Positions 11,290-52,382 of a DNA stretch of 64,000 nucleotides are shown piece after piece; position 1 is the first letter of the stretch, and every line of letters begins with the position of its first letter. The notes beneath the pieces are model-generated. The model made no database searches and had not been told where the DNA came from. It saw only the letters and a list, made by a program, of their open reading frames with translations. Both the position numbers and the translations under genes were made by a program. This DNA comes from an uncultured Pelagibacteraceae bacterium (lineage in GTDB: Bacteria > Pseudomonadota > Alphaproteobacteria > Pelagibacterales > AG-422-B15): positions 15,227 through 79,226 of the forward strand of contig CACEZK010000002.1 in assembly GCA_902564025.1 (NCBI GenBank), written 5' to 3'.

Positions 11290-11350
11290 ATTCGAACTAC
11301 CGACCTCCTGAACCACAACCAGGCGCTCTAACCAACTGAGCTACAGCTGC
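11274..11350 (-). tRNA. tRNA-His (anticodon GTG), encoded CCA, A73, no encoded G-1
   Basis: Reverse complement: GCAGCTG TA GCTC AGTTGGTTA GAGC G CCTGG TTGTGGT TCAGG AGGTC GGTAG TTCGAAT CTACC CAGCTGT A CCA. Full cloverleaf with canonical D and T loops. The base at -1 is T. Confidence 0.9.
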
Positions 11351-11355
11351 ATAAG

Positions 11356-11431
11356 TGGTGGCTCGAGGTGGAATTGAACCACCGACACAAGGATTTTCAG
11401 TCCTTTGCTCTACCAACTGAGCTATCGAGCC
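11356..11431 (-). tRNA. tRNA-Phe (anticodon GAA), encoded CCA
   Basis: Reverse complement: GGCTCGA TA GCTC AGTTGGTA GAGC A AAGGA CTGAAAA TCCTT GTGTC GGTGG TTCAATT CCACC TCGAGCC A CCA. Confidence 0.93.
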
Positions 11432-33112: not shown

Positions 33113-34036
33113 ATGCAAAATGTCGTCTCAGTAAAGAATTTATCTAAAACTTACAGTAATCAATTTCAGGCACTAAATAATGTAAATATAGATATCAAAC
33201 AGAATGAAATATTTGCACTACTTGGACCAAATGGTGCAGGAAAAACAACTTTGATCAGTATAATTTGTGGAATAGTAACGCCAAGTATTGGGACAGTTGA
33301 GGTTGGTAACTACGATATTATTAAAGATTATAGAAAAACTAGATCACAAATTGGACTTGTCCCTCAAGAGTTAACTTTAGAACAATTTGAAATTGTTTAT
33401 AACAATGTATCCTACACGAGAGGCTTATACGGCAAACCTCCTAATCCTCAGCATATTGAAAAAATACTAAAAGATTTAAGTCTGTGGGATAAAAAAGATT
33501 CCAAAATCAATGAGCTTTCTGGTGGAATGAAAAGAAGAGTCTTGATTGCTAAGGCTCTTTCTCATGAACCTTCAGTCTTATTTCTTGATGAGCCAACAGC
33601 GGGGGTTGATGTCGAATTAAGAAAAGACATGTGGGAAGTTATTAAGAATTTAAAAAATAAAGGTGTTACAATAATTTTAACAACCCATTATATAGAAGAA
33701 GCAGAAGCAATAGCTGACCGGGTAGCAGTAATTAATAAAGGTGAGATGATAATAGTTGATGAGACTTCAAATTTAATAAAAAGTTTAGGCCAGAAAACTC
33801 TAACAATTGATTTACATGAAACAGTTAAGACATTACCTGAATCACTTAAAAATTATAAACTTACTATAGTTAATGAAGGTTTATCAATTGATTACCAATA
33901 CGATACACAAAGCAAACAAACTGGAATAACCTCTCTCTTGCAAGATATGAAGGAGGCTGGATTAAAATTAAAAGATTTAAATACTGAACAAAGTTCTCTT
34001 GAAAAGATCTTTGTAGAATTGGTGAAGGAAAAATAA
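33113..34036 (+). CDS. ABC-2-type transporter ATP-binding protein
   Basis: 307 aa. Walker A GPNGAGKTT, signature LSGGMKRRV, Walker B LFLDEPTAGVD. Confidence 0.9.
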   Translation: MQNVVSVKNLSKTYSNQFQALNNVNIDIKQNEIFALLGPNGAGKTTLISIICGIVTPSIGTVEVGNYDIIKDYRKTRSQIGLVPQELTLEQFEIVYNNVSYTRGLYGKPPNPQHIEKILKDLSLWDKKDSKINELSGGMKRRVLIAKALSHEPSVLFLDEPTAGVDVELRKDMWEVIKNLKNKGVTIILTTHYIEEAEAIADRVAVINKGEMIIVDETSNLIKSLGQKTLTIDLHETVKTLPESLKNYKLTIVNEGLSIDYQYDTQSKQTGITSLLQDMKEAGLKLKDLNTEQSSLEKIFVELVKEK

Positions 34037-34797
34037 TGAATTTATACGCAATCAGAGCAATTTATTTTCATGAAATGGATCGAATGAGAAGAACTCTTTT
34101 TCAAAGCGTGCTTTCGCCTGTGCTTTCGACTTCTTTATATTTCATTGTATTTGGTTCAGTTATTGGGGGTATGATTCCGCAAATTGAAGGAGTTAGTTAT
34201 GGATCATTCATTGTGCCTGGTTTATTAATGCTGACTTTGTTAACTCAAAGTATATCAAACTCTTCATTTGGAATATTTTTTCCAAAATTTACTGGATCGA
34301 TTTATGAGGTTCTTGCTGCACCCATTTCCTCTTTAGAAATTATCATTGGTTTTGTAGGTGCCAGTGCGACTAAATCACTTATTGTTGGCGTCATTATACT
34401 CATGACTGCAACTTTTTTTGTTGAACTAAAAATTCAATATCCCTTATTAATGCTTTTTCTTCTGGTATTAACATGTCTTACATTTAGTCTTTTTGGATTT
34501 CTAATTGGACTACTCAGTGAAAATTTTGAACAGTTGCAAGTTGTACCACTTATCATCGTCACTCCTTTAGTTTTTTTAGGCGGTAGTCTCTATACTGTAG
34601 AAATGCTTCCAGAATTTTGGCAAAATGTAACTTACTTTAATCCTGTTTTATATCTTGTGAATGGTATGAGATGGTCTTTTTACGGGGCATCCGATATTAA
34701 TATTTGGGTCAGTGTAATTTCTTTAGTTGCTTTCTTAAGCATTTGTGTTGCTGGCGTGGCAATTGCTATTACAAAAGGCTATGGTACTAAGGAGTAA
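34036..34797 (+). CDS. ABC-2-type transporter permease (YadH-like)
   Basis: 253 aa, 6 hydrophobic helices. ATG overlaps the ATPase stop (TAATG). Confidence 0.85.
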   Translation: MNLYAIRAIYFHEMDRMRRTLFQSVLSPVLSTSLYFIVFGSVIGGMIPQIEGVSYGSFIVPGLLMLTLLTQSISNSSFGIFFPKFTGSIYEVLAAPISSLEIIIGFVGASATKSLIVGVIILMTATFFVELKIQYPLLMLFLLVLTCLTFSLFGFLIGLLSENFEQLQVVPLIIVTPLVFLGGSLYTVEMLPEFWQNVTYFNPVLYLVNGMRWSFYGASDINIWVSVISLVAFLSICVAGVAIAITKGYGTKE

Positions 34798-34807
34798 TTT
34801 CTACTAA

Positions 34808-34881
34808 GCCCCTATCGCTTAATAGTAAAGCAGGTCATTGGTAATGATCAGCCGCTGGAGCGTAACCAGCTAGGGGCACCA
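34808..34881 (+). tRNA. tRNA-like cloverleaf, formally tRNA-Thr(GGT) with encoded ACCA but non-canonical D and T loops
   Basis: GCCCCTA TC GCTT AATAGTA AAGC A GGTCA TTGGTAA TGATC AGCC GCTGG AGCGTAA CCAGC TAGGGGC A CCA. All four stems pair (21 bp, one G-U). The T loop is AGCGTAA rather than TTCRANY, and the D loop lacks GG. Confidence 0.55.
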
Positions 34882-36990
34882 CTAAAAACCACTTTCTCTG
34901 ATTAATGTTGATGAAACCAAATTAAATAGATTTTGAAAAATATTATAGTTTTCAGTCTGAATTTTTACTTTACCTGCTGTTTGCCATTGAGCAGTCTCAA
35001 CTTCAGTACTTGTAGAAAAATTAAGCTGGTATAATGCTTCTTCTGGTCGATAAATAACTTTTCCATCTCCCTTAACTTCACGTGATGCAATTGATCCACC
35101 AAAAGTAGATACTAATGATAAGTAAGGAAGTTCTTCTGTCGATGTATTATTTTGTGAAACCAAAACAACTTCTGCTTCATCAAATTCATTATTTTTTGGA
35201 ACAAAATAACCACTTGTATTACCTTCAAGTTTGTCCAAATCATTTTCGCTTATAAATGCGACAACTTTTGCGTCATTGAATTGAACAATAGAAAATAATT
35301 TTTCTTTTATATTCACCCATTGGCCATTATTTAAATACTTAAGATCTTTTATCACCCCACTCATTGGTGCATAAATTGATAGATTTTCATTTTCCTCTTT
35401 AAGACTTTTAAGAATTTCAAATTCTACTTTTAATTGGTTTTCTAATATCATGAGGTTGTTCATATCAGCCTCTGATCCGATTCGACGATCCAGTTTTTGT
35501 TGTATCATCTTTACACGCTCAATTGCCTTATCAACTTTATTTGATAAGGACGGACTCATCATTGTAATTAATAAATCACCTTTTGCGACTTGTTGATCTG
35601 AGATAACAAAAATCTCTTTTATCTCAGAATCTTCTGTTGGATAGATATCGACCACTTCACCACGATCAATTACCGCTGGAAGACTGAGTGAACTTCGCCA
35701 TGGTACTAACATTGCTGCCAAAAATAATGAAAAAATAAAAATTGATCTCAATGAATACCAATTAAAGCGCATGTACCTTCTAAGTCCCCACCACTGTTTA
35801 ATTTCTCTCCAAATTGGAAGTAAAATGAACCAAACAATCTCAATAAGGAACAGAATTATGCCAAGAATTTTGAATGTTAGATAATAAACCAATAAGGCAA
35901 TTCCAATAAATATAAAGAAGCGATATATCCATGTCATCCATGCGTAAATGATAAAAGTCCACCGTCTTTGACTCATGAGTTGTTCGGGTGGTTGGAATTT
36001 AAATCCAAAGATCCATTCTCTAATCTGCCATCGACCTAAAGCAAAAGAGCGCGGTTGAAGATTTTCCGCTTTAAGAAAATCTGAGAGCACATAGTATCCG
36101 TCAAATCGCATAAACGGGCTAATATTAATAAGAAGTGATGATATCCAGCTTGAAGTTGCAATAAAAAATGAAGCACTTTTAATAACACCTTCAGGGCTAA
36201 CAGCCCAAACAAATGTAGCAAGAAGGGCAAGGTGCAATTCAGTCAGCATGCCAGCAAAATTAATTAGTAATCGTTTTCTATGGTCAGTTAATTTGTACGC
36301 ATCAGTAGTGTCAGTGTATAAAAATGGAAAAAAAACGAGCATTGCAAGTCCAATTGAAGAAACTTTGCATTTATAATATGTTGCAACATAAGCATGCCCA
36401 AGTTCGTGCAAGGCTTTAACAAAAACAATCGTTATACCAAACAAAATCAATCCATTAACATTAAAGAAATAGGAAAATGTTGTTAAAAATGTTTCATAAT
36501 TTTGGATTGTTAAAAAAATACCAATAATCCCGAAAATATAGATTATAAGTCTGCTGGTTTGCGATCCAAGAAACAATGCAAGAGGCAAACTGTTTTCAAG
36601 ACCATTTCCTGGTTTAAATAATGGGATTTTAAAGAACAAATAATTATGAATAATTTTTAACAGCCAATGCTTGTTAAGTTTCTCTTTTTGAACAACTAAA
36701 GATTTAACTTCATCGCCTGTTTTTTTAATAGTTAAATTATTGAGATTTAGAAAACTAATAAATTCTTCAATTTCTTCTTGTGTTATAGAAAGATTACTTT
36801 TTTTAATTTTTTCAATAAATTCTGTTGTCTCAATTCCACTTGACCAATTTTTAAGGAGATCAAATGCTTTTTTGTTAATCGAAAAGTATTTATTTCTTAA
36901 AGAGTCATAAAGAAGCCACGACGCTGAACCGTCCTCTTTCTTTGGTCCCTCACTGAGTTTTAAATCTTGTCGAATAGACGGTACTATCAT
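34882..36990 (-). CDS. Fusion protein: PqqD-like N-domain + polytopic M50 (site-2 protease family) metalloprotease + HlyD-like membrane-fusion domain
   Basis: 702 aa. aa ~20-90 WLLYDSLRNKYFSINKKAFDLLKNW...EEIEEFISFLNLNNL (PqqD/RRE-like pattern). HELGH at 36394-36408 within multiple TM helices. C-terminal half has a lipoyl-like VAKGDLLITM, a coiled coil and a beta-barrel typical of HlyD. Confidence 0.78.
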   Translation of the reverse strand: MIVPSIRQDLKLSEGPKKEDGSASWLLYDSLRNKYFSINKKAFDLLKNWSSGIETTEFIEKIKKSNLSITQEEIEEFISFLNLNNLTIKKTGDEVKSLVVQKEKLNKHWLLKIIHNYLFFKIPLFKPGNGLENSLPLALFLGSQTSRLIIYIFGIIGIFLTIQNYETFLTTFSYFFNVNGLILFGITIVFVKALHELGHAYVATYYKCKVSSIGLAMLVFFPFLYTDTTDAYKLTDHRKRLLINFAGMLTELHLALLATFVWAVSPEGVIKSASFFIATSSWISSLLINISPFMRFDGYYVLSDFLKAENLQPRSFALGRWQIREWIFGFKFQPPEQLMSQRRWTFIIYAWMTWIYRFFIFIGIALLVYYLTFKILGIILFLIEIVWFILLPIWREIKQWWGLRRYMRFNWYSLRSIFIFSLFLAAMLVPWRSSLSLPAVIDRGEVVDIYPTEDSEIKEIFVISDQQVAKGDLLITMMSPSLSNKVDKAIERVKMIQQKLDRRIGSEADMNNLMILENQLKVEFEILKSLKEENENLSIYAPMSGVIKDLKYLNNGQWVNIKEKLFSIVQFNDAKVVAFISENDLDKLEGNTSGYFVPKNNEFDEAEVVLVSQNNTSTEELPYLSLVSTFGGSIASREVKGDGKVIYRPEEALYQLNFSTSTEVETAQWQTAGKVKIQTENYNIFQNLFNLVSSTLIRESGF

Positions 36991-38328
36991 TTATATTCCC
37001 AAAAATTGTCTGCTGGTATTGATTGGAACTCTGAAGATATAATAAAAAAGAGATGTTCGATCTCCGTAAATTTTTGCTGAACCTCGCAATCCAATACGCG
37101 GTGGATCAATATTATCCTCAAGGCTAGCGTGTATTTTATAAGCTAAAATATTCTCTGCTGTTAACTCAGGCTTGTAAGAAGTTCTTAATATTTTACCTTC
37201 AATCGAGCTTAGTGGACTACTGTCTAAAAACACCTTAACTCTCGCTGATTTTTCAATAAAAAGTGAGTCTTTTGTTGGTAGGTAAATTAAGAACTCAATA
37301 TCGTCTGAATTTGCTATAGTTAGTATCTTTTCACCTATATTTACAGGACGGCCTTGCCAGTCAATAAAATCCTCAACAACAGCAACGCCTGAAACCTCAG
37401 CTTTGATAACTGAATATTTTAACTGTTCCTCAGCATAGGTGACTTGCTTTTTTTTCAACGCAACTTGAGTTGATAATTCAACTAGCTTTGCTTTTGCTTC
37501 ATCATTTGTGAATGAGGATTGCTTGGCTCTAAGTAATTCTGCCTCAGCAACTTCTAATTCTTGCAAGCTTATTTCGTATTGGGATTTAAAATTGAGATCA
37601 TCTAATTTTATAAGCTCCGTACCAATATCAACAACATCATTAGTATTTACTAATACTTTTTTTACTACACCATTCACTGGTGATGTAACAACTGACGGAT
37701 TTTTAGCGATAACCTCAACTGGAGCTACTGCGGATATATTAATTGGCATAAACATTGATAGCGCGATTGCTACTAATATTAGCCACTTTAGCCAACCTGA
37801 AAAAATTCTACCGATGAAAGATAAAATTGATCCCCTTGATAAAAATGAGTCCAATGCGTGGCTGAATGTTTCAGCAATGTGTTGCAGTAGTTCTTTTTCT
37901 GTATTTGAAACTTTAGTAGATCTTACAATAACAAGAGAACCCAAGTCGCCCTTTGTTCTTGAAATTAATGGAACAACCATTAATTCGTTTGGAAAATTTT
38001 CAGGTAAATCTAAATTTGAACTGTCCTCTTTTAAATCATTAATTGAAACTTCTGAAAAAACTCCAGTTTCAAATTTCTTTTTATTTATTAATCTTTCAAC
38101 AAAAGTAACTGTCGGCGCTGTTCTATCAACAACTGAAATATCTGAAATTGTTTGGACTTTCTGTCGACCCGTAGCAGATTTTGTAAGAAAAAATAAAAAA
38201 TTATAATCAACAACACTTCTTAACTCATTCGCACAAATAAATCCAAGTTCGGATAAGTTTTCTGCTGTCCGAAATTTTTTTTCAAGAGTAATTAATCTTG
38301 CTATTTTTATTGAAGTATTATCATTCAA
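36991..38328 (-). CDS. HlyD-family membrane-fusion protein with N-terminal cytoplasmic GAF-like domain
   Basis: 445 aa. ~170-aa soluble N-domain, one TM helix (WLKWLILVAIALSMFMPI), then SPVNGVVKKVLVNTNDVVDIGTELIKLD, a coiled coil and a beta-barrel. Apparent TTG start overlapping the upstream stop. Confidence 0.7.
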   Translation of the reverse strand: MNDNTSIKIARLITLEKKFRTAENLSELGFICANELRSVVDYNFLFFLTKSATGRQKVQTISDISVVDRTAPTVTFVERLINKKKFETGVFSEVSINDLKEDSSNLDLPENFPNELMVVPLISRTKGDLGSLVIVRSTKVSNTEKELLQHIAETFSHALDSFLSRGSILSFIGRIFSGWLKWLILVAIALSMFMPINISAVAPVEVIAKNPSVVTSPVNGVVKKVLVNTNDVVDIGTELIKLDDLNFKSQYEISLQELEVAEAELLRAKQSSFTNDEAKAKLVELSTQVALKKKQVTYAEEQLKYSVIKAEVSGVAVVEDFIDWQGRPVNIGEKILTIANSDDIEFLIYLPTKDSLFIEKSARVKVFLDSSPLSSIEGKILRTSYKPELTAENILAYKIHASLEDNIDPPRIGLRGSAKIYGDRTSLFYYIFRVPINTSRQFLGI

Positions 38329-39044
38329 AACGTTGCTGTCCCACTCATGCCTGGCAGTAATGTATCATAATTTTCGTCAAATTTTGCAGTAATGTCGATG
38401 GTTTGGCTTACAGGATCAATATCAACACCAATAGTATGAATTTTGGCGCTATATGTTTGACCATTTTCATCAATGCTGATTTTCATCGGAAAGCCCTCAT
38501 CAATCCAAGCCAACCATTTACTTGAAACAATCAATTTCGCCTCAAGAATGCCTGAACCAATAATTTCGACCAATGGCTGCTGTCTTTCAATGCTCTCAAA
38601 CTCATTGACAAACACTTTGGATACTTTGCCATCATAAGGGGCTTTAATTATACATCGATCTGTATTGAGTTTAGCAATCTGTAATTCAGCTTCTGCACGC
38701 TTTACATCGATTTCTGATAACTGAACCTCATATTCACCAATGGATCTCATCAAGGCAAGTTCTTGATTGCTCTTTAGAGTTACTCTTGCACTCTCTAATT
38801 GTGCTTCAACAACTTTTCGTTGTTCTTCAAAAAATGAACAATCAAACTTAATTAAAATATCAGACTCCTTAAATTCGGATCCTTCATCAATTGGAATTGA
38901 ATCAACTTTTGCAGCAAGTTCACTTGAGAGCGTTGCCTCTTCAGTTGCAATTACTAAAACACGTGTTGAATATTCTTCTGCTGACGTATTATAAGGCAGT
39001 AATATGCAGCAAGCCGCTACTGCAAATGTTACAATTTTGTTCAT
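38325..39044 (-). CDS. Short periplasmic membrane-fusion (HlyD/RND-adaptor-like) protein
   Basis: 239 aa. Signal peptide, lipoyl-like halves (KVDSIPIDEGSEFKESDILIKFD ... IKAPYDGKVSKVFVNEFE) flanking a hairpin coiled coil. Confidence 0.7.
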   Translation of the reverse strand: MNKIVTFAVAACCILLPYNTSAEEYSTRVLVIATEEATLSSELAAKVDSIPIDEGSEFKESDILIKFDCSFFEEQRKVVEAQLESARVTLKSNQELALMRSIGEYEVQLSEIDVKRAEAELQIAKLNTDRCIIKAPYDGKVSKVFVNEFESIERQQPLVEIIGSGILEAKLIVSSKWLAWIDEGFPMKISIDENGQTYSAKIHTIGVDIDPVSQTIDITAKFDENYDTLLPGMSGTATF

Positions 39045-39055
39045 AAACGTAATTA

Positions 39056-42000
39056 TTAACTTACAAGAGATACAATTTTTTCGCCATAGCTATCTGCTGC
39101 TTTAGCATGAAGCTTTAATTGCTCATCTAGTGGAATGAAGGAAATTTCATCGTCTGTTGCTGAGTTTTCTTCATCAGACTCACTTCCTGTTATTTCATTA
39201 AGATCAAGCTCAACTTCAATAATTCTTTCTTTTCCATCTTCATCCTCAGCAATAATTTTTAGTTCAAGAACTTGAAGGCTTTCAGTTAAGAATGCTGGAG
39301 CCGCTGAGCCTGTTCTTCCTTTTGAAGGGTCAGCCGCAATTTTTCCAGTTTCAGGATCAATTGTAATCCAATCAGGTAGTACGCCACCACCTTTGAGCTC
39401 TGCTTTGTATATTTTCACATTTGACTGATTATCGTCAATTACATCAAATGTAAATTGGCCTGCATCCATTTGAAGGCTGCTTAACTTCATTGTGCCTTCA
39501 AAATCTGTTTGAGCATTCAAATTATTATTTGCTGTATTACTTGATGCATTATTGTTCTCCCTGATCAAATTTACATTTGCATCATTATCAACAACTACTC
39601 TTGCCTGATCAACGGCTCCCCTTGCGAAGTCTTGGTCGCCTTTAATTTTAGCTTTATCCAATACAATATTAATATCTCTGGTATTACCATCCTTATCGAG
39701 AGCCACTAATTGAACCTCAACTGCGTCAATACCTTCTGGAATGTCTGCAGTTGTTTCTCCTGTTTCAGGGTTAACTTTAATCCATTCAGGCAAAACTTCA
39801 CCGTTAGAGAGCTGACCTGAATACAATTCAACATTTTTCTGATTATCATCATTTAGTTTAACTCCAACTTTTAAATCAGACTCTGTATCACCAGAAACTT
39901 CACTTGCAACAGCATCCATCAATCTCAACCCACCGTTAAACTTTAATGGTTTTGATAAAGACGCAGTATCTGCAATTGAAACTGTATCAAGTGTGAATCC
40001 ATCGTTACTGTCAATTGATGAACCCTGACTAATTGTTTCTTTTATAGCTGCTAGAAAGTCTTTCTTAGGTTTAACGATTACTGGATCAAGGTTTCCAAAA
40101 GTTTCTTCAGCTATTATCTCGCTATCATTCGAATAACCTGGTGCTGGATGAACAGTAATAGTAAAAGTATGGTCTGCAAATAGTCCTGCGCCATCTATCG
40201 CTCTTATAGTAATTGTATATGTACCGGGCTCACTGAGTCTTCCAGTTAACTTGTTATTTTTCAGTCTTAATCCATCTGGCAAACTTGTTTCAGCTTCTGT
40301 TTCTGGATCAACAATTTTATATTCTGTGATATCGAAAATACCTCTGTCAGGGTCATTAAAAATTTGTTTATGCTTAATATTTATTTGCTGACCTGTGAAT
40401 ACTGGAGGTAAATCAACAGGATAAACCACTTCAGGTGGATCATTTTTACCAGTTACAGTAATTGCAATCTCCGCTGCAACAGAGGAATCGTTATCTGTTG
40501 CGGTATAGGTAAAATATTCGGTAAATACGTCTCCAGGATTAAGTCGCTTGGCTTTGTTTGCTGTATAAGTATAACTTCCATCAGAATTTATGGTTAGATC
40601 ACCAAATATTCCTGAGAGGGGTTCACCTACCGTACCCACTTCACCTGTTTTATTCTCTCGGCCAGCTTTAATAGTATCAACAGTTAATGTATCTCCATCA
40701 GGGTCAGTATCATTTATCAATACACCTTGAGTTGCATCTTTTTCTGTTTGTGCACCTGCATCGATTTCTAATATGTCATCAACGGGTTCGGGTGGGTCAC
40801 TGATACCTTCAACTGTAATTGCAATTACTCCGGTGTCTGTTCTTGTTCCATCGGACACTGTATAGTTGAAATAATCAATGGCACTATCTCCTCGTTTAAG
40901 GACATTGGCAGCATCCTGGTCTGCTGCGTAGGTATAACTACCATCAGCATTTAAAGTTAAAGTACCATAAGTTCCTATCAGAGTAGTACCAACTTTACCG
41001 GCACCTCCTTTACCACCACCTTCAACTTGACCTGTTCGCACTTCAGAAATGGTTAGAGTCTCTCCGTCGGCATCCGTATCATCTGCATTAATTGCAAGCG
41101 TTGAGTCCTTAGCACGGGAGATTGATGCGTCCCGTTTAACAGTATCCGTGTCATCTACGGCCACTGGATTATTGTCATTGATGCCTGTAACGGTGAATGT
41201 AAGCTCAGCTGTTGAAGTTGCGGTGCCATCACTCACTGTGTATGTAAATGTATCAGTTCCTGTTTGGTTTGTTACCAATTGATCTGATTTATCTTGATCC
41301 GCAACGTAGGTATACGAACCATCTGCATTAACAGTAAGAGTTCCAAATTCACCCGTAAGTGCAACACCAACTGTACCATCAGTTCCAGTTCCATCCTTTG
41401 GACCAGTTCTGATATCAGTAATTGTAAAGTTTCCACTTGTGTCATCCCCATCAACATCTGTATCGTCGTGATCAAGTTCTTGGTCGTCACTGATTAATCT
41501 TGTAACCGTTGCATCCTCGTTAACGCTATCTGTATCATCAACAGCAACGATTGCATCGTTAGCTCCATTGATTGTAAATGTGAGCGTTGCAGTTGATGAA
41601 TTTTTGTCATCATCATCCTTTACAGTATAAGTAAATACTTCGGTAACACTGTCACCTGCATCCAATGCTTCTGCAGCGGCTGTGTTTGGTGTGTATGTGT
41701 AACTTCCATTAGCTGCAATAGTCAAAGTACCATACGTCCCTAAAACACCTTGACCAGCAGTGCCTGTATTACCGGTACCACCTGACGAAATATTTGTAAC
41801 GGCGAGACTTTCTCTATCTCCACCTGTATCGTTTGTTAATACACCACCTGCCTCATTAACTGTTAATGTCTGACTCTCAGTTGCTGTAGCTGTATCTGCT
41901 GAACCAACGGGTCCCTTACCGGTTACCGTAATGGTCAGAGTTGCAGTGGCAGTAGCGTTCTCATTATCTGTGACCGTGTAAGTAAATACGTCATTTGCCG

Positions 42001-45000
42001 TAGCGTTATGTGCCAGTGCATCAGCAGCGGCTTTGTCAGCAGTATACGAATAACTACCATCAGAATTAAGGGTCAGAGTACCATAAGTTCCATCTGTTGA
42101 TCCACCAACTGTGCCAGCTGATGCACCGGTAATTGCTGTCACCGTCATGCTTGAACCCGTGTCAACATCACTATCGTTTGAAAGTACTCCTGCTCCAGCA
42201 TTTTTTGTTGCTGTAGCATCTTCATCAACAGCATTCGTATCATTGCTTGCGCTTGGAGCATCATTCACTCCTAAAACAGTAATGGTTATTGTGGCAGTAT
42301 CTGTACCACCATTGCCATCACTGACTGTATAAGTAAAGACGTCAGTTGCTGTTGCATCTTTTGCTATCGAGTTTGCGTTGTTTGCATTGTAGGTGTAATT
42401 ACCGGTGCTTTGAATTGTTAACGTTCCGTAAGTTCCTGTCGCAGCGCCACCAACAGATCCTCCTGAAATAGCTGAAACTGTAAGTGTGTCTCCATCTACA
42501 TCTGTATCATTATTTAAAACGTCCCCTGTATTATCTCCACTTTCATTATTTTTATTACCATCGGTTCCTGAAACCCCGGTTGAGCCATCGCCAACTGTTA
42601 ATGTTTGATCTTCTGTTATGTATCCTGTTGCAGGATTACTATCTACTGCTGGGTCATCAGCTACAGGAGGAGTATTATTTGAACCGGTAATTGTAATTGT
42701 AAGTGTTGCAGTATCGGTATCATTTGGACTGCTTGTATGATCTCGAACTGTGTAAGTAAAGACATCAGTTGCTTGGACACCGTTGCCTAAACTCGTTGAA
42801 CCGTTTTGATCAGCTATATAAGTATAGGAACCATTTGCATTGACAGTTAATCTACCTTTTGATGTCGTAATTTCTTGACCGGGGTTATAATCATCAGAAC
42901 CATGTCTGATATTGGTAATAGTAAAGCTACCTGATGCATCATCGGCATCAGGGTCAGTATCGTCGTGATCGAGTTCTTGTGTATCACTTTCACTTCTAGT
43001 GATTGTAGATCCAGCGTTTACAGCATCAGTATCAGCAACCGCGGTAATATCATCATTAACACCAGTCACCGTAATAGTTAACGTTGCGATACTTGCATTT
43101 TTATCTGCATCATCTTTAACCGTGTAGGTGAATACATCATCAACTGTATCACCATGATCAAGGGCTTCGGCTGCTGCTTGGTTAGCAACATATTCATAGC
43201 TACCGTCAGCTGCCATAGTTAAAACACCGTAAGTACCAGTAACAGCCTGTGCAGCATTACCACTATTTCCAGTAGCGGCATGATTAATGCCAGTTACAGC
43301 TAAACTCTCAACATCAAAGCTTGCGTTATCATCATCGTTACTGATAACGCCAGATGCTTCGTTTACTGTTAGAGTGGCATTTTCATTGACCGCACCGGTG
43401 TCAGCAACCGCTTGTGGACCTACACCGGTTACTGTGATGACTAAATCCGCTGAACCAGTTGTTCCACCATTATTATCACTTACGGTATAAGTAAATGTAT
43501 CAGTTGCTGTGGCATCGGCAGCGAGTCCATCTTCACCTCTGCCATTTGCAACATATGTGTAACTACCATCTGAATTCAAAGTTAGAACACCGTATGTTCC
43601 ATTTAATGCTGCACCCACTGTTCCTCCATCAATGCCTGAAACTGTTAAGGTTGAACTAGCGTCTACGTCAGTATCGTTTACTAAAACACCACTTCCAGCA
43701 CTGACAGTAAGAGTTTTATCCTCGTTAATAGCCCCTGCATCATTACTGCCAGCTGGATCATCGTCAAGACCTGTTATCGTAATCGTAAGAGTTGCTGTAT
43801 CTGCATTAACCCCATTGTCATCTTTGACAGTGTAGGTAAAAATATCAGTAACGGAGTCATTTAAATCCAGAGCTTCGGCTGCTGCTGTATTAGCAACATA
43901 AGTGTAACTGCCATCAGCTGCGACGGTTAGCGTACCATATGTTCCGAGAACACCTTGAGTAGCGTTTCCACTGTTTCCAGTAGAATTTGAACTGATTTCA
44001 GTAACTGCAAGATTTTCTGTATCACCACCTGAATCATTACTGATTACACCTGCACCAGCATTTGCAGTTAAAGTTGCATTCTCATTGACACTACCAGTAT
44101 CATTGCTTGCACTTGGACCAACCCCTGTCACAGTTATTGCAAGTTCAGCCGTATCTGTATCGTTTGGACTACTTGCGTGATCTCTGACCGTATACGTAAA
44201 GTAATCTATTGCAGTGGCGCCTGCAGCAAGTGTATCTTCACTTCTATTATTTGCAACATATGTGTAACTACCGTTTGCATTAACAGTTAATACACCATAG
44301 GTACCATTTAAAGCTTGTCCAACTGTACCAACTGTTGCTCCACTGCTAGAAGATTCTCTTCCTGTTCTGATTGCCGTAATGGTAAAGCTACCAGACACAT
44401 CATCGCCGTCTGGATCGGTATCGTCATGATCAAGTTCTTGTGTGTCTGAAACACTTCGAGTAATAGTTGCATCTTCATTCACAGAGTCTGTATCGTTTAT
44501 AGCTGTTATTGGATCATTTAAACCTGCAATAGTAATAGTGATTGTTGCGGTAGCGTCATCAGTTTGATCAGTAACAGTGTAAGTAAAGGTATCAGTGTTC
44601 GTTTCACCAGGATCTAATCGGTCTGCAGCAGTTTTATTGGCTTCGTATACGTATCGACCAGATGAATAGAGTGTTAATGTACCATAAGTGCCATCAACTG
44701 GTGATCCAAGAGATCCTCCATTGATGGATTTAACAGTCAGTGTATCACCATCAGCATCAGTATCATTTAATAAAACATCACCGGTATGTTCACCTGATGT
44801 ATCAGGTGTGGCATCATTTGCGCTGGCATCATCAGCAACAGTCAATGTGGCGTCTTCGTTAATGTAACCGGCATCATTATTACCAACGGGGGGATTATTT
44901 GTTTCTGCAGCTCGTGTGACCACACGAATGAAGTCACCTTTTTCTCCGTTATCAGCTGAAAGGGTTATTCGTTTATTGGAATTAGAAACAGACCAACCAT

Positions 45001-46144
45001 CACTGTTCGATGTTAAACTTCCTGGTGCACCACCAGAGTATTCAAAATCCCTTTTACCGATTTTCTGGGCACTCATGGTAGGATAAGCGGAGCTTCCTAG
45101 GTCCGTATAACCTGACATGAAAATGGTATTATCGGGTATCGTGAAAACACCGATAATGTCATAAGTAAAGTCAACTATACCTCGTGCACTCGATCCTCGT
45201 CGATTGATTTCATCATTCAAATAGACCATGTAAACGTTTACCGGTCCATGTATATCTGGATCCCAACTGTTTGCAGTCACGCCAACATCAAAGTTTAGTG
45301 TGTCACCAGTACTCACATTCGCTTTTTCTTGTGTGATGATCCATCGCTTGCTGCTGTCCTGTTGTCCGTTCTTATTACCTGAGAAATTTCCACCACCTGC
45401 TTTTAAATTGGTCGCATTATGTTTTTCAACAGCATTTGAAATGGCAGTAACATCATTGCTCAGAGAATGATTATAATTGATAACACTCACATTTTGAGTT
45501 TCTACAATGCCAACATGCTTTTCAAGATCCCAATCTCCACCTTGACCTGTAATATCATCAGATGCTGCAATATCTGCTTGCATGATATCAGCAAGTTGTT
45601 TAATGAAGATTTCTCCATTTAGATCAGCTGCAACATTACAACCATAAAATAAAATGTCACCCTGCTCAGTTAGACTCAACCCAATAGTTTTTAAAGTGTC
45701 TCTGTAAGTATCAAGTGTATCATTGTTTAAGACAGCAGTTCCAAATGCTATTTGCCCAACACTACCGTGACCAATAATATGTAATGCATCAATATCAGAC
45801 TCGTTAGATAAAATATTTTCAATTTCAGCAAACCCGTCTTGTTCACTTTGTATGATATATACTTCAGTACTGTCATCAAAACTTTCAATTAAAACTTCGA
45901 TATCATCAACCGCACTGTCGATAAATACAAATTGTTTGGTTCTAGCATTCTGATTTGTACTTTCACGATTAACGAATGGAAGTTTTGTATCTTGATCGGT
46001 TTTAAAATTATTTTCTTTTGTTTTTTTGTCTAAGTCAGTCTTATCCAAGTTCACTAAATCATCTATCGTGTCAATTGCTGTTGCAACTGCAGCTCCATCG
46101 AGCATCATGCGCGGTTCGAGTGCCTGAATAAGTTTTTTAGTCAT
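39056..46144 (-). CDS. Giant (2362 aa) DUF4347-domain / VCBS (tandem-95-type) repeat surface protein with C-terminal cadherin-like modules
   Basis: N-terminus MTKKLIQALEPRMMLDGAAVATA. aa ~71-210 FIDSAV...ALHIIGHGS.G...GDILFYGCNVA...ADIAASDD.TG..GGDWDLE (DUF4347 signature). About 12 repeats with NEDATLTV...NDTD.DGD.LTV...GTYGTLT...DGSYTY...TD.FTYTV.D...TATLTITVTG.ND. C-terminal LP(D/E)W...PETG... modules. No Sec signal and no GGxGxD RTX repeats are visible. Confidence 0.9.
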   Translation of the reverse strand: MTKKLIQALEPRMMLDGAAVATAIDTIDDLVNLDKTDLDKKTKENNFKTDQDTKLPFVNRESTNQNARTKQFVFIDSAVDDIEVLIESFDDSTEVYIIQSEQDGFAEIENILSNESDIDALHIIGHGSVGQIAFGTAVLNNDTLDTYRDTLKTIGLSLTEQGDILFYGCNVAADLNGEIFIKQLADIMQADIAASDDITGQGGDWDLEKHVGIVETQNVSVINYNHSLSNDVTAISNAVEKHNATNLKAGGGNFSGNKNGQQDSSKRWIITQEKANVSTGDTLNFDVGVTANSWDPDIHGPVNVYMVYLNDEINRRGSSARGIVDFTYDIIGVFTIPDNTIFMSGYTDLGSSAYPTMSAQKIGKRDFEYSGGAPGSLTSNSDGWSVSNSNKRITLSADNGEKGDFIRVVTRAAETNNPPVGNNDAGYINEDATLTVADDASANDATPDTSGEHTGDVLLNDTDADGDTLTVKSINGGSLGSPVDGTYGTLTLYSSGRYVYEANKTAADRLDPGETNTDTFTYTVTDQTDDATATITITIAGLNDPITAINDTDSVNEDATITRSVSDTQELDHDDTDPDGDDVSGSFTITAIRTGRESSSSGATVGTVGQALNGTYGVLTVNANGSYTYVANNRSEDTLAAGATAIDYFTYTVRDHASSPNDTDTAELAITVTGVGPSASNDTGSVNENATLTANAGAGVISNDSGGDTENLAVTEISSNSTGNSGNATQGVLGTYGTLTVAADGSYTYVANTAAAEALDLNDSVTDIFTYTVKDDNGVNADTATLTITITGLDDDPAGSNDAGAINEDKTLTVSAGSGVLVNDTDVDASSTLTVSGIDGGTVGAALNGTYGVLTLNSDGSYTYVANGRGEDGLAADATATDTFTYTVSDNNGGTTGSADLVITVTGVGPQAVADTGAVNENATLTVNEASGVISNDDDNASFDVESLAVTGINHAATGNSGNAAQAVTGTYGVLTMAADGSYEYVANQAAAEALDHGDTVDDVFTYTVKDDADKNASIATLTITVTGVNDDITAVADTDAVNAGSTITRSESDTQELDHDDTDPDADDASGSFTITNIRHGSDDYNPGQEITTSKGRLTVNANGSYTYIADQNGSTSLGNGVQATDVFTYTVRDHTSSPNDTDTATLTITITGSNNTPPVADDPAVDSNPATGYITEDQTLTVGDGSTGVSGTDGNKNNESGDNTGDVLNNDTDVDGDTLTVSAISGGSVGGAATGTYGTLTIQSTGNYTYNANNANSIAKDATATDVFTYTVSDGNGGTDTATITITVLGVNDAPSASNDTNAVDEDATATKNAGAGVLSNDSDVDTGSSMTVTAITGASAGTVGGSTDGTYGTLTLNSDGSYSYTADKAAADALAHNATANDVFTYTVTDNENATATATLTITVTGKGPVGSADTATATESQTLTVNEAGGVLTNDTGGDRESLAVTNISSGGTGNTGTAGQGVLGTYGTLTIAANGSYTYTPNTAAAEALDAGDSVTEVFTYTVKDDDDKNSSTATLTFTINGANDAIVAVDDTDSVNEDATVTRLISDDQELDHDDTDVDGDDTSGNFTITDIRTGPKDGTGTDGTVGVALTGEFGTLTVNADGSYTYVADQDKSDQLVTNQTGTDTFTYTVSDGTATSTAELTFTVTGINDNNPVAVDDTDTVKRDASISRAKDSTLAINADDTDADGETLTISEVRTGQVEGGGKGGAGKVGTTLIGTYGTLTLNADGSYTYAADQDAANVLKRGDSAIDYFNYTVSDGTRTDTGVIAITVEGISDPPEPVDDILEIDAGAQTEKDATQGVLINDTDPDGDTLTVDTIKAGRENKTGEVGTVGEPLSGIFGDLTINSDGSYTYTANKAKRLNPGDVFTEYFTYTATDNDSSVAAEIAITVTGKNDPPEVVYPVDLPPVFTGQQINIKHKQIFNDPDRGIFDITEYKIVDPETEAETSLPDGLRLKNNKLTGRLSEPGTYTITIRAIDGAGLFADHTFTITVHPAPGYSNDSEIIAEETFGNLDPVIVKPKKDFLAAIKETISQGSSIDSNDGFTLDTVSIADTASLSKPLKFNGGLRLMDAVASEVSGDTESDLKVGVKLNDDNQKNVELYSGQLSNGEVLPEWIKVNPETGETTADIPEGIDAVEVQLVALDKDGNTRDINIVLDKAKIKGDQDFARGAVDQARVVVDNDANVNLIRENNNASSNTANNNLNAQTDFEGTMKLSSLQMDAGQFTFDVIDDNQSNVKIYKAELKGGGVLPDWITIDPETGKIAADPSKGRTGSAAPAFLTESLQVLELKIIAEDEDGKERIIEVELDLNEITGSESDEENSATDDEISFIPLDEQLKLHAKAADSYGEKIVSLVS
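40430..44896 (-). repeat. About 12 tandem ~100-135-aa VCBS/tandem-95-like coding repeats
   Basis: Repeat boundaries are marked by ITITIAGLND, LAITVTGVGP, LTITITGLDD, LVITVTGVGP, LTITVTGVND, LTITITGSNN, ITITVLGVND, LTITVTGKGP, LTFTINGAND, LTFTVTGIND, IAITVEGISD, IAITVTGKND. Confidence 0.85.
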
Positions 46145-46351
46145 GTTAATTTATATAAATAAAATTTAGTAATTTGTTGATAAATATACCTTTTCTATAT
46201 ACAGCAGTAATGCTACCAAATGTAGCAAGATCGCAAAAAAAACCCAAAATGGGCGGTTATATATACACTGAACTTAGTAAAGTTTGGTATTACTTGCGCC
46301 GGATACGGTTACCCGTTAAGACAGTATCTTGGTTTTTATTAAAAAAAATAA

Positions 46352-49120
46352 ATGGTCAATCCAATAAAAAAATTATTTATAGTTTTCATATGTTTGGCGT
46401 TCGTTGCTTGTGCGCGATCTCCAAAAGTAATTGATTCAGAGTCATTAAGCATTTCAATTGCTGAAGAAATTGCCGAACTAGAAATTGATGCATCTTTAAA
46501 AAATATTGATTTGCATACTGCAATTGCAATTGCAGTTAGAAACAATCGCGACTTAAGGATAAGTGTGATGGAATCCGCATTGGCAAATAGACAGAGGGAT
46601 CTTCAGAAATTTGATATGCTTCCAGATATAGCACTTACTGCAGGTTATTCAGAATTTACAGAACTACAACCATCTACGAGTAAGAGTGTTCTGCTTGATA
46701 CCGGTTCTGCCCCACCACTTGATGGGACAGAGAGTTATACAATTTCAAGGGATAAAATTCAGGAAACCAGAGGAATCGAATTTACCTGGAATGCTCTTGA
46801 CTTTGGCCTGTCATACATAAGGGCTGGTCAACAAGCTGACAGATATTTAATTGCTAAAGAATTAGAAAGAAAAGCAGTTCAAAACATTACTCGAGATATC
46901 ATCAGATCATACTGGAAAGCTCAAGCATCAGAAAACCTTCTTAATAAGCTTAATCCCCTATTAAAAAGAGTTGATGATGCCCTCGCAGACTCACAATACA
47001 TAGAAGAATTGCTGATTTCAGCGCCAATGGACTCATTGCTATATCAAAAAGAATTGTTAGATGTTCAACGAACACTACAAACTCAACAACGAGCACTAAT
47101 TAATTCTAAAAACGAATTGGCTGCATTAATGGGATTGTTACCAAACCAAAAATTCACGCTAACTGATAATGAGTCATATTTAACAAATTTAAGTATGGAT
47201 ATTCAAACAATGGAGGAAATAGCACTTATTTCAAGACCTGAGTTGATGGAAAGCAGATATCAAAAAAGAATTTCAAGCAAGGATACACGCGCGGCTATGT
47301 TAGCCCTAATTCCAAGTTTAAAATTTAATGCGGCTTATGGTTACACGGATAATGACTACTTGATGAACCAAGATACTACTGAGTACGGAGCATCAATTGG
47401 AGGTAATTTATTTGATATTTTTTCTGTCGGTGCAACAAGAAAAGCTTCAAAAGCAAATCAAGAATTGATTGCAGAAAGACATTTAGCAATAGCTATGACA
47501 GTTCTTTCACAAGTTCATTTATCAAACATCAATTACGATTTAGCAATCGAGGAATATGATACTGCACAAAGATATTTGGACGTAGCACGAAGAATTAGTA
47601 AGCAAGTTCAGAATGCTCAAAAAGTATCAAGATTTGGTGAGCTTGAAGTGATCAGAGAAGAAGCAAGTCTATTAGTAGCAGAATTAAGGAAAGATTTAGC
47701 ATTTTCAGAAATGCAGCATAGTATTGGTCAGATTTACGCATCAATTGGTAAAGATATACTGCCTGAAAATCATCAAAACCTTTCAATTGAAGATCTAGGC
47801 AATAGCATTAAAGCCAATTTAGCTGAGTGGGGCGTAACTTATCAAGCTGCAGTCAATATTCCTTTAAATGATCAAAACCCGCAACTTATAGTCATTACAG
47901 ACCCTATAAATACAAAACAATCCAGCAACAAATTTAAGATATCTAAAAATACATTTAATATTACTGGTCCAGGTAAATTAAGATACTCGGTAACGCAACA
48001 AGACGGCAGTGATTTGCCTCGATGGCTTGCATTCCTAACGTCAGACTTATCGATAGTTGGTAACCCGCCAGAGGATGTATCAGGTATAAAACTAAAAATC
48101 TCTGTTGCTAATGCTCTGGTTTCTGCAGAGGACAAATTCATTTTGAAATTTGTTGATGAAGAAACATATCTTGCAAATGAAAGTCAGAAGGCAAGTGAAG
48201 AATTAGCGCAAATGAGCAAATTGAGCAACGAAAATAATGAAGGTTTACCCGTTGAGCAGGTGGAAGATACGATTGAGACAACAGCAATTGACGAAGCAAT
48301 GGAAGCTGAAGAAAATATACCTGAGCCAATGGAAACAGAATATGAGTTTAGTAATGTATCAGCTGAGGATTTAAATAATCTTTTAGATTCAGTTGATCAG
48401 CTACTTGAGGGGTCGCTTGACCAATTGAACAATGAACAGGCCGCACTAGAGTTTAATAATCAAGTTTTTGATGAAAGTGTTGATGCTAATACTACTAACG
48501 AAGCTGAAGAAAATAATATTTTGCCAACAAAAAAAATTATTCAAGAAAACGAACAGCTTATAGCTGACAATAAGGAACTGCTCTCTGAAGCAACTGAAGC
48601 AAAAGAAGAATTAGCTCGATTAATTGAAGAAAATAAACAAAAAGAATTAGAAGATATAAAGGCTCAAGAAGAGCTTGAAGAAAAGTTAGCTAAAGAGGCT
48701 GAAGAGGCGTTGGCAAACTTGAATGAACTTATGGATACAAGTATTGACGCTGAAACTAATTCATTCAGCGCTCAAGCGAGTGAAGCAACAGATTTATCTG
48801 ATAATAATATCTCAAATGGTTCATCAAATGCAGAGTATGCATATATTAAGATCGGATCGTATAAACGTGGAAACTCGGCGAATAGCCTAATGAATTACGT
48901 ATACGATTTAATGGGCTTTGATACCCGTTTCCTCAAATACGATATTAATGTAGAAAAATTTAACAAAAATGACTTCTCAGTAGTAATTGGCCCAGTTCCA
49001 ATGGTTGAGGCTAAATCGATGCTAGAAGAACTTGATACTCAATTAAGTTCAGAAAATACCTCAATTGTTGATGCTGAACTAACTTGTAATGAAGAAGTCA
49101 TTTTAATGTGCTCAATTTAA
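46352..49120 (+). CDS. TolC-like outer-membrane channel lipoprotein fused to a cadherin-like module, an acidic coiled-coil linker and a SPOR-like domain
   Basis: 922 aa. Lipobox LAFVAC. aa ~50-470 has two OEP-type repeats (LHTAIAIAVRNNRDLR..., ISRPELMESRYQ...). aa ~525-600 LRYSVTQQDGSDLPRWLAF...GNPPEDVSGIKLKISV. aa ~600-810 is E/D/N-rich. aa ~828-897 YAYIKIGSYKRGNSANSL...FSVVIGPVPMVEAKSMLEEL (SPOR-like pattern). Confidence 0.78.
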   Translation: MVNPIKKLFIVFICLAFVACARSPKVIDSESLSISIAEEIAELEIDASLKNIDLHTAIAIAVRNNRDLRISVMESALANRQRDLQKFDMLPDIALTAGYSEFTELQPSTSKSVLLDTGSAPPLDGTESYTISRDKIQETRGIEFTWNALDFGLSYIRAGQQADRYLIAKELERKAVQNITRDIIRSYWKAQASENLLNKLNPLLKRVDDALADSQYIEELLISAPMDSLLYQKELLDVQRTLQTQQRALINSKNELAALMGLLPNQKFTLTDNESYLTNLSMDIQTMEEIALISRPELMESRYQKRISSKDTRAAMLALIPSLKFNAAYGYTDNDYLMNQDTTEYGASIGGNLFDIFSVGATRKASKANQELIAERHLAIAMTVLSQVHLSNINYDLAIEEYDTAQRYLDVARRISKQVQNAQKVSRFGELEVIREEASLLVAELRKDLAFSEMQHSIGQIYASIGKDILPENHQNLSIEDLGNSIKANLAEWGVTYQAAVNIPLNDQNPQLIVITDPINTKQSSNKFKISKNTFNITGPGKLRYSVTQQDGSDLPRWLAFLTSDLSIVGNPPEDVSGIKLKISVANALVSAEDKFILKFVDEETYLANESQKASEELAQMSKLSNENNEGLPVEQVEDTIETTAIDEAMEAEENIPEPMETEYEFSNVSAEDLNNLLDSVDQLLEGSLDQLNNEQAALEFNNQVFDESVDANTTNEAEENNILPTKKIIQENEQLIADNKELLSEATEAKEELARLIEENKQKELEDIKAQEELEEKLAKEAEEALANLNELMDTSIDAETNSFSAQASEATDLSDNNISNGSSNAEYAYIKIGSYKRGNSANSLMNYVYDLMGFDTRFLKYDINVEKFNKNDFSVVIGPVPMVEAKSMLEELDTQLSSENTSIVDAELTCNEEVILMCSI

Positions 49121-50178
49121 TTCGTTAAATCTTCATAAATATTGAAATAAAAATTCATCATTTCAGTAAAAGTCAACTCTTTGTATTTCAAAAATACATC
49201 CACTTCTCCATTGAGTTTTGGGTAGTTAACACGATAAATACTTCTGCCTTTTTTCTCTAAATGTTTCAATTCAATTAATTTCTTACTAGACCGTCTAACG
49301 GTTTCACGCGGCATTTTTGCTGCCTCAGAAATTGAGGATAGATTTGTTGGAAGAAGATGTCCACTCTCGTATAGATCTTCTATGGAATTATATTTTAATA
49401 TACCGTGTCTGTTTTTAAAATACACAGCGGCTGAGAGTATTATGCGATCTGCTGGTAAAAGTGATTTATCGCTTCCTTCTAAAGTAAGAATTCTTACCCA
49501 GAAGTGGTATAAATGTAATCGTACTCTGTTCCATTTAGGCTGAGATAATTTTTTTGTATTGATTGAAGTTAGAGGCTTTAAATTGAAATTGATTTTAAAA
49601 TAATCTTCTAAATTTAATATGAAATCATTTAATGAGCGCATGACTGATTTATAGATATTACTTAATGAATTGGTAAATATATACGCCTGATAGGCGTCAA
49701 AATTTACAAGATATCCATATTTTGGGTCTTTAGTTATTAAATCACTTTCTAAAACTGAATTTAAGTATCTTCTCATACTTTCTTTTGGAATATTGAAATG
49801 AGTTGAAAGTGAAATAATGGTAATTTTTTTGCCAATGAATTTACTAAACGATGACTGATAAATTGAGTCATTAAGAAAATCCTCTGGATGCATTGCTAAT
49901 ATTTCATTTCTATGTTCTTTGAATAAATTTTCATCATGATATGCGTTTGTAAATGAAAAAAGTATTACAAAAGATAAAATGGCAATTACTTCATCTTGCA
50001 GCCTTTGATCTTTTGTAATCCAACCTGTTGGGCTATCTTCCCAATCTGACGGTTCGTGAATAAATAGATTTTGATGACGAGAAAGTTGAATTAACAATAA
50101 TAGAGCGAGTTGGTCATTGTCCAACTTTAAAGTGTGCTCAATTACAGAGTCTTTAATTTTTTTTAAATTAGAATCCAT
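49117..50178 (-). CDS. Hypothetical protein with two winged-helix-like DNA-binding segments
   Basis: 353 aa. FNIPKESMRRYLNSVLESDLITKDPKYGYLVN and ISEAAKMPRETVRRSSKKLIELKHLEKKGRSIYRVN resemble wHTH modules. No family recognised. Confidence 0.45.
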   Translation of the reverse strand: MDSNLKKIKDSVIEHTLKLDNDQLALLLLIQLSRHQNLFIHEPSDWEDSPTGWITKDQRLQDEVIAILSFVILFSFTNAYHDENLFKEHRNEILAMHPEDFLNDSIYQSSFSKFIGKKITIISLSTHFNIPKESMRRYLNSVLESDLITKDPKYGYLVNFDAYQAYIFTNSLSNIYKSVMRSLNDFILNLEDYFKINFNLKPLTSINTKKLSQPKWNRVRLHLYHFWVRILTLEGSDKSLLPADRIILSAAVYFKNRHGILKYNSIEDLYESGHLLPTNLSSISEAAKMPRETVRRSSKKLIELKHLEKKGRSIYRVNYPKLNGEVDVFLKYKELTFTEMMNFYFNIYEDLTN

Positions 50179-51588: not shown

Positions 51589-51590
51589 AT

Positions 51591-52190: not shown

Positions 52191-52382
52191 ATTTTTTGTT
52201 AGTATCCAAATTCAATATAGTATTTTCTATGATAATTAAAAGATCTACAGAGAATGAACCATGCTTAAATTGTCGCAGTTTTTTCCTCAAAATAGAGGAA
52301 ATTAGGTAAAAATTGCAATTTATTTGTTTGCATTGAACCCTTGGTAAGAGATAAGTAAGAGTTATAACTCAAAAGCTGATTT

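Follow-up and report, generated by a model that had tools for sequence, protein, structure and literature searches.

The 64,000-nucleotide (nt) stretch analyzed here, hereafter the window (positions 15,227 to 79,226 of contig CACEZK010000002.1, from the uncultured Pelagibacteraceae bacterium assembly GCA_902564025.1), carries at 34808–34881 on the plus strand a 74-nt tRNA-Thr(GGU) gene with an encoded CCA. We put at about three in four the probability that this is the chromosomal tRNA-Thr(GGU) of its SAR11 lineage, bearing an alternative elbow and an attachment site in its anticodon loop. What is uncommon here is a natural, covarying alternative elbow which phage tRNAs also have, together with a two-sided anticodon-loop island anchor in SAR11. 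The elbow formed by the T loop and the D loop is counted among the tRNA features best conserved across every domain of life (PMC7912444).

The gene reads GCCCCUAUCGCUUAAUAGUAAAGCAGGUCAUUGGUAAUGAUCAGCCGCUGGAGCGUAACCAGCUAGGGGCACCA and was recognized by its Rfam score, by ARAGORN with the -ps option, by its fold and by its identity among SAR11 loci. Its minimum-free-energy structure is a cloverleaf (−27.8 kcal/mol, z = −3.07) which was equaled by 0/200 shuffles, with an acceptor stem of 7 bp, a D stem of 4 bp, anticodon and T stems of 5 bp each, a 7-nt D loop and a 4-nt variable loop. This fold and the Rfam score bear out the original prediction, made from the letters of the window, that these 74 nt form a tRNA-like cloverleaf. 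All four stem lengths are as it gave them; its description of the stems as perfectly paired has to be softened for a single G-U pair in the anticodon stem. U8, A14, U33, anticodon GGU, A37, the discriminator A (A73, 34878) and CCA (34879–34881) are read directly in the sequence. Scoring by tRNA-finding programs had been proposed as a check. Rfam covariance model RF00005 aligns over model positions 1–71/71 with 50.9 bits (E = 5.7e-8) against a gathering score of 29, hence above background; ARAGORN misses the gene at its default setting, where it calls His and Phe only, and calls tRNA-Thr(ggt) at exactly 34808–34881 with -ps at a threshold of 95%.

It is in the elbow that the gene departs from the canonical form. 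The T loop (34859–34865) is AGCGUAA, that is A54 G55 C56 G57 U58 A59 A60, with the exchange of positions 54 and 58 to A and U just as first described. The D loop (34821–34827) is AAUAGUA, which had been thought to be without the G18 G19 pair; alignment with a second SAR11 allele introduced below (variant B, AAUGGUA) places A18 at 34824 and G19 at 34825, so that only G18 has been changed and G19 is kept. Thus G19, C56 (34861) and G57 are canonical and A18, A54, G55 and U58 deviate. ARAGORN and Rfam find in the window only tRNA-His (68.0 bits by RF00005), tRNA-Phe (74.8 bits) and the gene at 34808–34881; the loops of the His and Phe tRNAs are canonical, as had been noted.

The marks of a threonine isoacceptor are all present: anticodon GGU (34840–34842, within the anticodon loop UUGGUAA at 34838–34844), U36-A37, G1-C72 and C2-G71. 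The last two we take, from identity studies in E. coli, to be identity elements for threonyl-tRNA synthetase (ThrRS). ACU and ACC make up 48–49% of the threonine codons in the open reading frames (ORFs) of the window, and the gene is most likely their decoder. SAR11 genomes have on average about 32 tRNAs by tRNAscan-SE (bioRxiv 10.64898/2026.04.03.716430), a number which would seem to leave little room for redundant isoacceptors.

The relatives of the adjacent ABC-2 permease are found in Pelagibacteraceae (SAR11) single-cell genomes and metagenome-assembled genomes, which assigns the window to this group; an exact-protein look-up of the permease itself gave no match on record. In about 20 SAR11 loci, here referred to with all other loci compared by L numbers, the tRNA-Thr is identical at 74/74 positions while the permease is 84–99% identical, and full tRNA identity persists in loci in which the permease is only 84–87% identical. 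As a yardstick, between the window and L015 (85% permease identity) the canonical tRNA-Phe differs at 2/76 positions and tRNA-His at 4/77.

Other SAR11 loci have in the same neighborhood a second 74-nt tRNA-Thr(GGU), which we call variant B, the gene of the window being variant A. Variant B scores 59.1 bits with Rfam and is called by ARAGORN at default. Its D loop is AAUGGUA, with G18 G19, and its T loop GUCAGUA (G54 U55 C56 A57 G58); it is therefore nearer to the canonical form yet still non-canonical at 54/58, and each of the four stems shows compensatory changes between the two variants. Judged by sequence, neither variant looks decayed. In one set of loci with flanks 88–93% identical, variant A is found in L025 and L028, variant B in L024 and L027, and homology restarts at the first base past CCA, which we read as the whole-gene replacement of a tRNA. 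Since the flanks around the A and B alleles are nearly identical, both types of elbow would appear to work in such backgrounds. In the regions compared, a stretch of about 410 nt with a small ORF, and variant A besides, occupy in L025 (3149–3849) and L028 (14770–15470) the exact site of variant B in L024 (14780–15060) and L027 (12447–12727). L100 contains two full or nearly full copies of variant A (5446–5518 and 7546–7619), 2.1 kb apart, around two genes; the outer copy sits at the contig end and may be an effect of assembly.

A degenerate pattern scan of metagenomes recovered at least 120 loci with more than 50 distinct tRNA-Thr(GGU) sequences having the acceptor stem of the window gene; positions 1–5 with 66–70 are invariant among them, but these had been set by the search pattern. 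When the distinct sequences with a non-canonical T loop are taken, 21 in number, 94.0% of the stem cells are paired as compared with 70.2% after shuffling; 0/500 shuffles reach the observed value, and 15/24 pairs have changed in both partners. Covariation scores 0.647, and at most 0.097 when the partners are slid by 1–3 columns.

The elbow behaves in the same manner as the stems. G19 and C56 occur in 21/21 of the sequences with non-canonical T loops. Among the tRNA-Thr(GGU) matches listed, positions 54/58 fall into the classes U-A, G-G and A-U; G55 appears only alongside A18, and A54/U58 loops with U55 (AUCGUAA, AUCGUUA) retain G18. The T loop of the window gene, AGCGUAA, is found in at least nine distinct sequences among these matches. 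In a Thr(GGU)-anchored sample of 351 well-folded distinct tRNAs, a D loop with A-G instead of G-G accompanies 20/23 G55 tRNAs versus 5/328 others (Fisher p = 4.7e-25), and 12 of those 20 are not Thr(GGU), coming from ten different isoacceptors. For viral loci alone the figures are 13/15 G55 tRNAs versus 3/355 others (p = 1.8e-19). These deviations covary, so the contacts look replaced and not lost, and on these comparisons the elbow of the window gene belongs to an alternative type which recurs and is consistent in itself.

In the wider tRNA-Thr(GGU) set the 19–56 pair itself covaries, being U19/A56 in L083 and L146 and A19/U56 in L137, L162 and L168; occurring as G-C, A-U and U-A, it serves as a positive control, showing that real contacts are picked up by the elbow analysis. 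Another class of T loop, UCCGAUU (C55), was observed in at least nine distinct tRNA-Thr(GGU) sequences (L153, L170, L176, L184, L194, L196, L199, L089 and L130) with a normal G18 G19 D loop, and no compensating D-loop change was seen in them.

Many of the matches from outside SAR11 lie within dense arrays of 17–44 tRNA genes, several of them on IMG/VR viral contigs (dense arrays in L094, L112, L117, L130 and L185; viral contigs L201–L220). T loops of the type AGCGU.. occur there in Val, Ile, Met and Phe tRNAs, AUCGU.. in His, Lys, Tyr, Gly, Gln, Met and Thr(CGU) tRNAs, GUC.G.. in Lys and Ser tRNAs, and AUCGA.. (A54/A58) in Glu, Pro and Phe tRNAs; the classes represented in the arrays are A54/U58, G54/G58, A54/A58 and C55. 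Viral contigs L208 and L220 have tRNA-Thr(GGU) genes with the exact D and T loops of the window gene, and L207 likewise has one with this D-loop and T-loop pair. The array of L185 includes a tRNA with a CUA anticodon (amber suppressor-type), which ARAGORN labels Pyl. The phage arrays are thus like the SAR11 locus in having a tRNA-Thr(GGU) with these D and T loops, the alternative T loops extending to other isoacceptors, and unlike it in that the window gene is single, chromosomal and set in conserved SAR11 synteny.

One might speculate that the elbow is shared, and possibly exchanged, with phage arrays, that alleles have been swapped horizontally at a recombination hotspot, and that the tRNA is a target, or a means of escape, in phage–host conflict; we hold this view only tentatively. 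If it were true, loss of the modification sites U54, U55 and A58 could alter the way in which the tRNA is read by factors which recognize the elbow (modification enzymes, RNase P and tRNA-targeting toxins), a potential point of attack or escape. As to a donor, the exact sequence of variant A is not in IMG/VR or the GenBank phage collection, the 38-nt 5′ halves of both variants gave 0 matches in IMG/VR, and the full tRNAs, compared by blastn with GenBank phages, gave no pelagiphage match and, for variant B only, weak matches to Xanthomonas phage tRNA-Thr genes. Hence no phage donor of the SAR11 alleles was found in these two collections.

As we picture it, the tRNA would be transcribed together with the ABC-2 genes directly upstream, which we consider probable; it begins 10 nt past the permease stop codon, and there is no insertion between them. 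Its 5′ end would be cut by RNase P, its 3′ end trimmed to the encoded CCA, and the product presumably charged by ThrRS by way of G1-C72, C2-G71, G35 and U36. The elbow keeps G19-C56, the purine at 57 and G53-C61, and A18-G55 would stand in for the G18-U55 contact and A54-U58 for the U54-A58 reverse-Hoogsteen pair. Since these replacements covary, the L-shape would not be lost but held in place by other contacts of equivalent effect.

Compared with a canonical bacterial tRNA-Thr(GGU) of the E. coli thrT type, the window gene shares the cloverleaf, U8, A14, G19-C56, G53-C61, the purine at 57, U33, anticodon GGU, A37, A73, CCA, G1-C72 and C2-G71. It differs in A18, in G55 (no pseudouridine 55), in A54 (no 5-methyluridine 54), in U58, in its 7-nt D loop and 4-nt variable loop, and in an ARAGORN score below the default. 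From randomized T loops selected in vivo, Zagryadskaya, Doyon and Steinberg (Nucleic Acids Research, 2003) reportedly obtained functional suppressor tRNAs with G54-G58 and G54-A58, and the first of these combinations is what SAR11 variant B has naturally. A published account stresses seven T-loop positions as highly conserved and gives A54-A58 for the eukaryotic initiator tRNA (PMC7912444). Together these examples indicate that other combinations may take the place of the 54–58 pair when they mimic its geometry. Those suppressors were laboratory selections and A54-A58 belongs to a eukaryotic initiator, whereas the variants considered here are natural bacterial and phage elongator tRNAs. Literature searches on SAR11 tRNA-Thr, on A54-U58/G54-G58 and on A18/G55 brought up no description of these natural variants, and the combination of A54-U58 with A18-G55 did not turn up.

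The second property of this locus, its use as an integration site, is evident in the relatives. Repeats of the 5′ half of the tRNA, or of less, occur in eight loci (L001, L005, L014, L019, L023, L033, L093 and L174). In five of them (L001, L005, L014, L093 and L174) the upstream gene is directly followed by nt 1–38, with the full tRNA 2.6–10 kb further on; the partial copies of the remaining three comprise nt 1–37 (L033, variant B), nt 1–20 (L019) and nt 1–38 (L023). Repeats of the 3′ half (nt 30/31–74) lie 3.3–7.2 kb downstream of the full tRNA in L090, L131, L145, L165 and L175. The 5′-half copies end at nt 37/38 and the 3′-half copies start at nt 30/31, both at the 7-nt anticodon loop, which is on this basis the putative crossover core. 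A left end of about 150 nt is common to the elements of L001, L005, L014, L093 and L174, whose cargo differs, and a right end of about 230 nt, containing a repeated TGTGTCCTA motif, is common to those of L001, L005, L014 and L174. After the partial copy of L033 comes a mobile-element gene of the DUF5906 primase-helicase type, and this element runs past the end of the locus before an integrase could appear.

The cargo is of defense or metabolic type and includes a PLD-SNF2 helicase with an Eco57I/MmeI-type methylase, T5orf172 and DUF4116 proteins, a type I restriction-modification system, Mrr-ResIII helicases, CHAT/caspase-like proteins with ECF sigma factors, and a urease operon. This operon separates the upstream gene from the tRNA in L006 and L008 (10760–16003) and in L019 (12615–17950); ureD, ureC, ureE, ureF and ureG were recognized in it on visual inspection of the translations. 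A conserved sequence common to all three loci precedes the tRNA, and the 20-nt 5′ remnant of L019 lies at the left border.

A 7-nt anticodon loop between the inverted halves of the anticodon stem would have the geometry expected of the core site of a tyrosine recombinase. We suggest that site-specific recombination within this loop inserts cargo upstream, with duplication of nt 1–37/38, and that insertion downstream by way of the same loop duplicates nt 30/31–74. The tRNA locus would then be an anchor for flexible islands, served by a putative recombinase. One of the explanations offered in the original prediction, that of an island-integration target, is in this way upheld and extended by the half-tRNA-flanked cassettes of the relatives and by the block next to the window gene, which is inserted with respect to L021 and L022 (see below). 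Both types of SAR11 insertion, those duplicating the 5′ half and those duplicating the 3′ half, use one anticodon loop; integrating elements are said (Williams, 2002) usually to restore the 3′ part of the tRNA. The tycheposons of Prochlorococcus have seven target tRNAs, one of which is Thr(ggt), and have full and partial tRNA copies at their borders; the islands carry defense and nutrient-acquisition cargo, and degenerate remnants without an integrase are common (bioRxiv 10.1101/2020.12.28.424599). The SAR11 islands resemble them in being anchored at a tRNA, in the full and partial copies and in the defense and nutrient cargo, and differ in their host and in that no tyrosine recombinase was found in the cassettes examined. 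A preprint on pelagiphages describes integrase-bearing viral contigs with sequence identical to a SAR11 tRNA-Thr.

Several points weigh against our reading of the gene and its locus. In the scan of metagenomes the pattern itself prescribed acceptor positions 1–5, the anticodon loop and the 3′ end, which carry no covariation information. The inventory of tRNAs covers the window, and a second, canonical tRNA-Thr(GGU) elsewhere in the genome is possible. We infer the match of A18-G55 and A54-U58 to canonical geometry from covariation, and the recombination mechanism from the geometry of the repeats only. A search of all ORFs of all loci with an integrase motif regular expression, which was perhaps too strict, gave 0 matches, and Pfam found no integrase in representative cargo, about 14 cassettes having been examined in all. 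No repeat of either tRNA half occurs in the window at up to three mismatches, blastn-short returning only chance words of 8–13 nt. Finally, scans for promoters and terminators gave no signal above chance, either around the tRNA, the gap between permease and tRNA included, or at the right end of the elements.

Other explanations must be set beside the one preferred. A special-purpose tRNA, accepting threonine for a non-proteinogenic or regulatory end beside a canonical tRNA-Thr(GGU), with an elbow that lowers its use by EF-Tu and the ribosome, has a precedent of sorts in the tRNA-Gly molecules that donate pentaglycine in Staphylococcus. These too are bacterial and have deviant residues in the D and T loops; G19 is replaced and elbow contacts are lost, EF-Tu is bound weakly, and proteinogenic isoacceptors coexist with them (PMC4574755). 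The SAR11 gene, unlike these, keeps G19-C56, and its changed positions covary, 18/55 as A-G, which speaks for an elbow that is maintained. A complement of about 32 tRNAs would offer little redundancy for such a specialist (bioRxiv 10.64898/2026.04.03.716430), many isoacceptors of the phage arrays, which presumably act in translation, have the same elbow, and neither a tRNA-dependent transferase nor an enzyme of peptide synthesis was seen among the flanking genes annotated. We consider this explanation unlikely.

Less likely still is a tRNA-like structure that acts mainly as an RNase P or 3′-end signal for the ABC-2 transcript, or whose sole use is that of an attachment site, and that is never charged. 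The start of the gene 10 nt past the ABC-2 stop codon, the convergent gene abutting on its CCA and the lack of a separate promoter or terminator detected nearby would suit a processing element, and in the relatives the tRNA clearly does serve as an attachment site. Yet the anticodon loop, G1-C72, C2-G71, A37, the discriminator and CCA have all remained intact, covariation extends over the entire cloverleaf, anticodon stem included, and the sequence is kept while its upstream contexts vary (ABC-2, ggt, sucD-like, urease, island ends), so the gene is not tied to the ABC-2 transcript. On conservation and covariation we rejected a pure tRNA mimic; a side role in processing is not called for, though conceivable. 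As for a decayed pseudogene, or the relic of an attachment site left by an old integration, the Rfam score under that of the canonical tRNAs of the window (50.9 versus 68–75 bits), the default ARAGORN miss and the location at an island border all fall in with it, but the gene is 100% identical across genomes in which neighboring proteins are about 85% identical, and its stem substitutions are compensatory and not random. True relics do exist in the relatives, as half copies, and they are visibly truncated. Both variants are conserved, and no canonical tRNA-Thr occupies the site in the relatives, where the syntenic variant B has G54/G58. Identity and compensatory change led us to exclude decay, to which we leave next to no probability. 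Among the options that had been listed for this element we therefore favor an unusual but functional tRNA-Thr, given its full-length identity in SAR11, the compensatory changes of its stems and the covariation of its elbow.

If the gene is a working tRNA-Thr(GGU), a covarying alternative elbow that recurs across phage tRNAs, and is present in what looks to be an essential tRNA of a bacterium dominant worldwide, would constitute a natural test set for what is required of the elbow by its partners, among them RNase P, EF-Tu, the L1/L5 contacts of the ribosome, TruB/TrmA-type enzymes and the CCA-adding enzyme. Its significance would be greater were it the sole decoder of ACY codons and were the change to alter recognition by the factors that read the elbow. 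Annotation of variant A genomes of SAR11 with ARAGORN at default would omit tRNA-Thr(GGU) and so bias completeness checks. In the same way, if the loop is an attachment site, the flexible genes of SAR11 (defense, urease, adhesin/secretion) would be arranged around a tRNA anticodon-loop site as they are in Prochlorococcus.

Upstream of the tRNA in the window lie an ABC transporter ATPase (33113–34036, +; Pfam ABC_tran) and the ABC-2 permease (34036–34797, +; Pfam ABC2_membrane). At its 3′ end begins a flexible block of 14.2 kb (34882–49116), delimited by Pfam annotation and by synteny with L021 and L022. Pfam assigns to it a peptidase M50-HlyD fusion of 702 amino acids (34882–36990, −), two HlyD-family proteins (36991–38328, − and 38325–39044, −), a cadherin-like adhesin of 2362 amino acids with cadherin repeats and an N-terminal DUF4347 (39056–46144, −) and a TolC-like OEP protein of 922 amino acids with an Ig-like domain (46352–49120, +). 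As had been reported, the 3′ end of the tRNA touches the stop codon (TAG, 34882–34884) of the M50 fusion gene. The block (34882–49120) constitutes an unusual secretion module, and no ABC or other inner-membrane energizer was seen inside it.

The first conserved gene past the block encodes 353 amino acids (49117–50178, −) and is 68% identical over all 353 to its homolog in L021 (tblastn). In that locus an identical tRNA is followed by 1 nt, by this homolog and then by homologs of 50248–55014; L022 is without the adhesin block and also without the 353-amino-acid gene. The gene order of L021 and L022 makes the 14.2-kb block an insertion at the 3′ end of the tRNA relative to both. This comparison of synteny, with the block in the window and without it in the two relatives, supports the placement of the tRNA at the edge of an adhesin locus. 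The block is kept within the window's own subclade, and at its far junction two convergent stop codons overlap. The search of the window for a downstream repeat of the 3′ half, which had been proposed together with an island at this site, found none at up to three mismatches or by blastn-short, and the conserved ends of the 5′-side elements of the relatives are not in the window.

The G+C content of the window is about 33–36%, rising to about 40–42% within the adhesin gene. That of the genus Pelagibacter is 28–30% (bioRxiv 10.64898/2026.04.03.716430), and given its higher value the lineage of the window is probably a SAR11 subclade other than that genus. The same preprint reports a tRNA-Phe/tRNA-His pair as the left border of a universal SAR11 hypervariable region (bioRxiv 10.64898/2026.04.03.716430). 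In the window this pair lies at 11274–11431 (−), 23 kb upstream of the ABC-2 genes and on the opposite strand; in L015 it lies at 19411–19568 (+), 9 kb downstream and on the same strand, from which a rearrangement between the two lineages follows.

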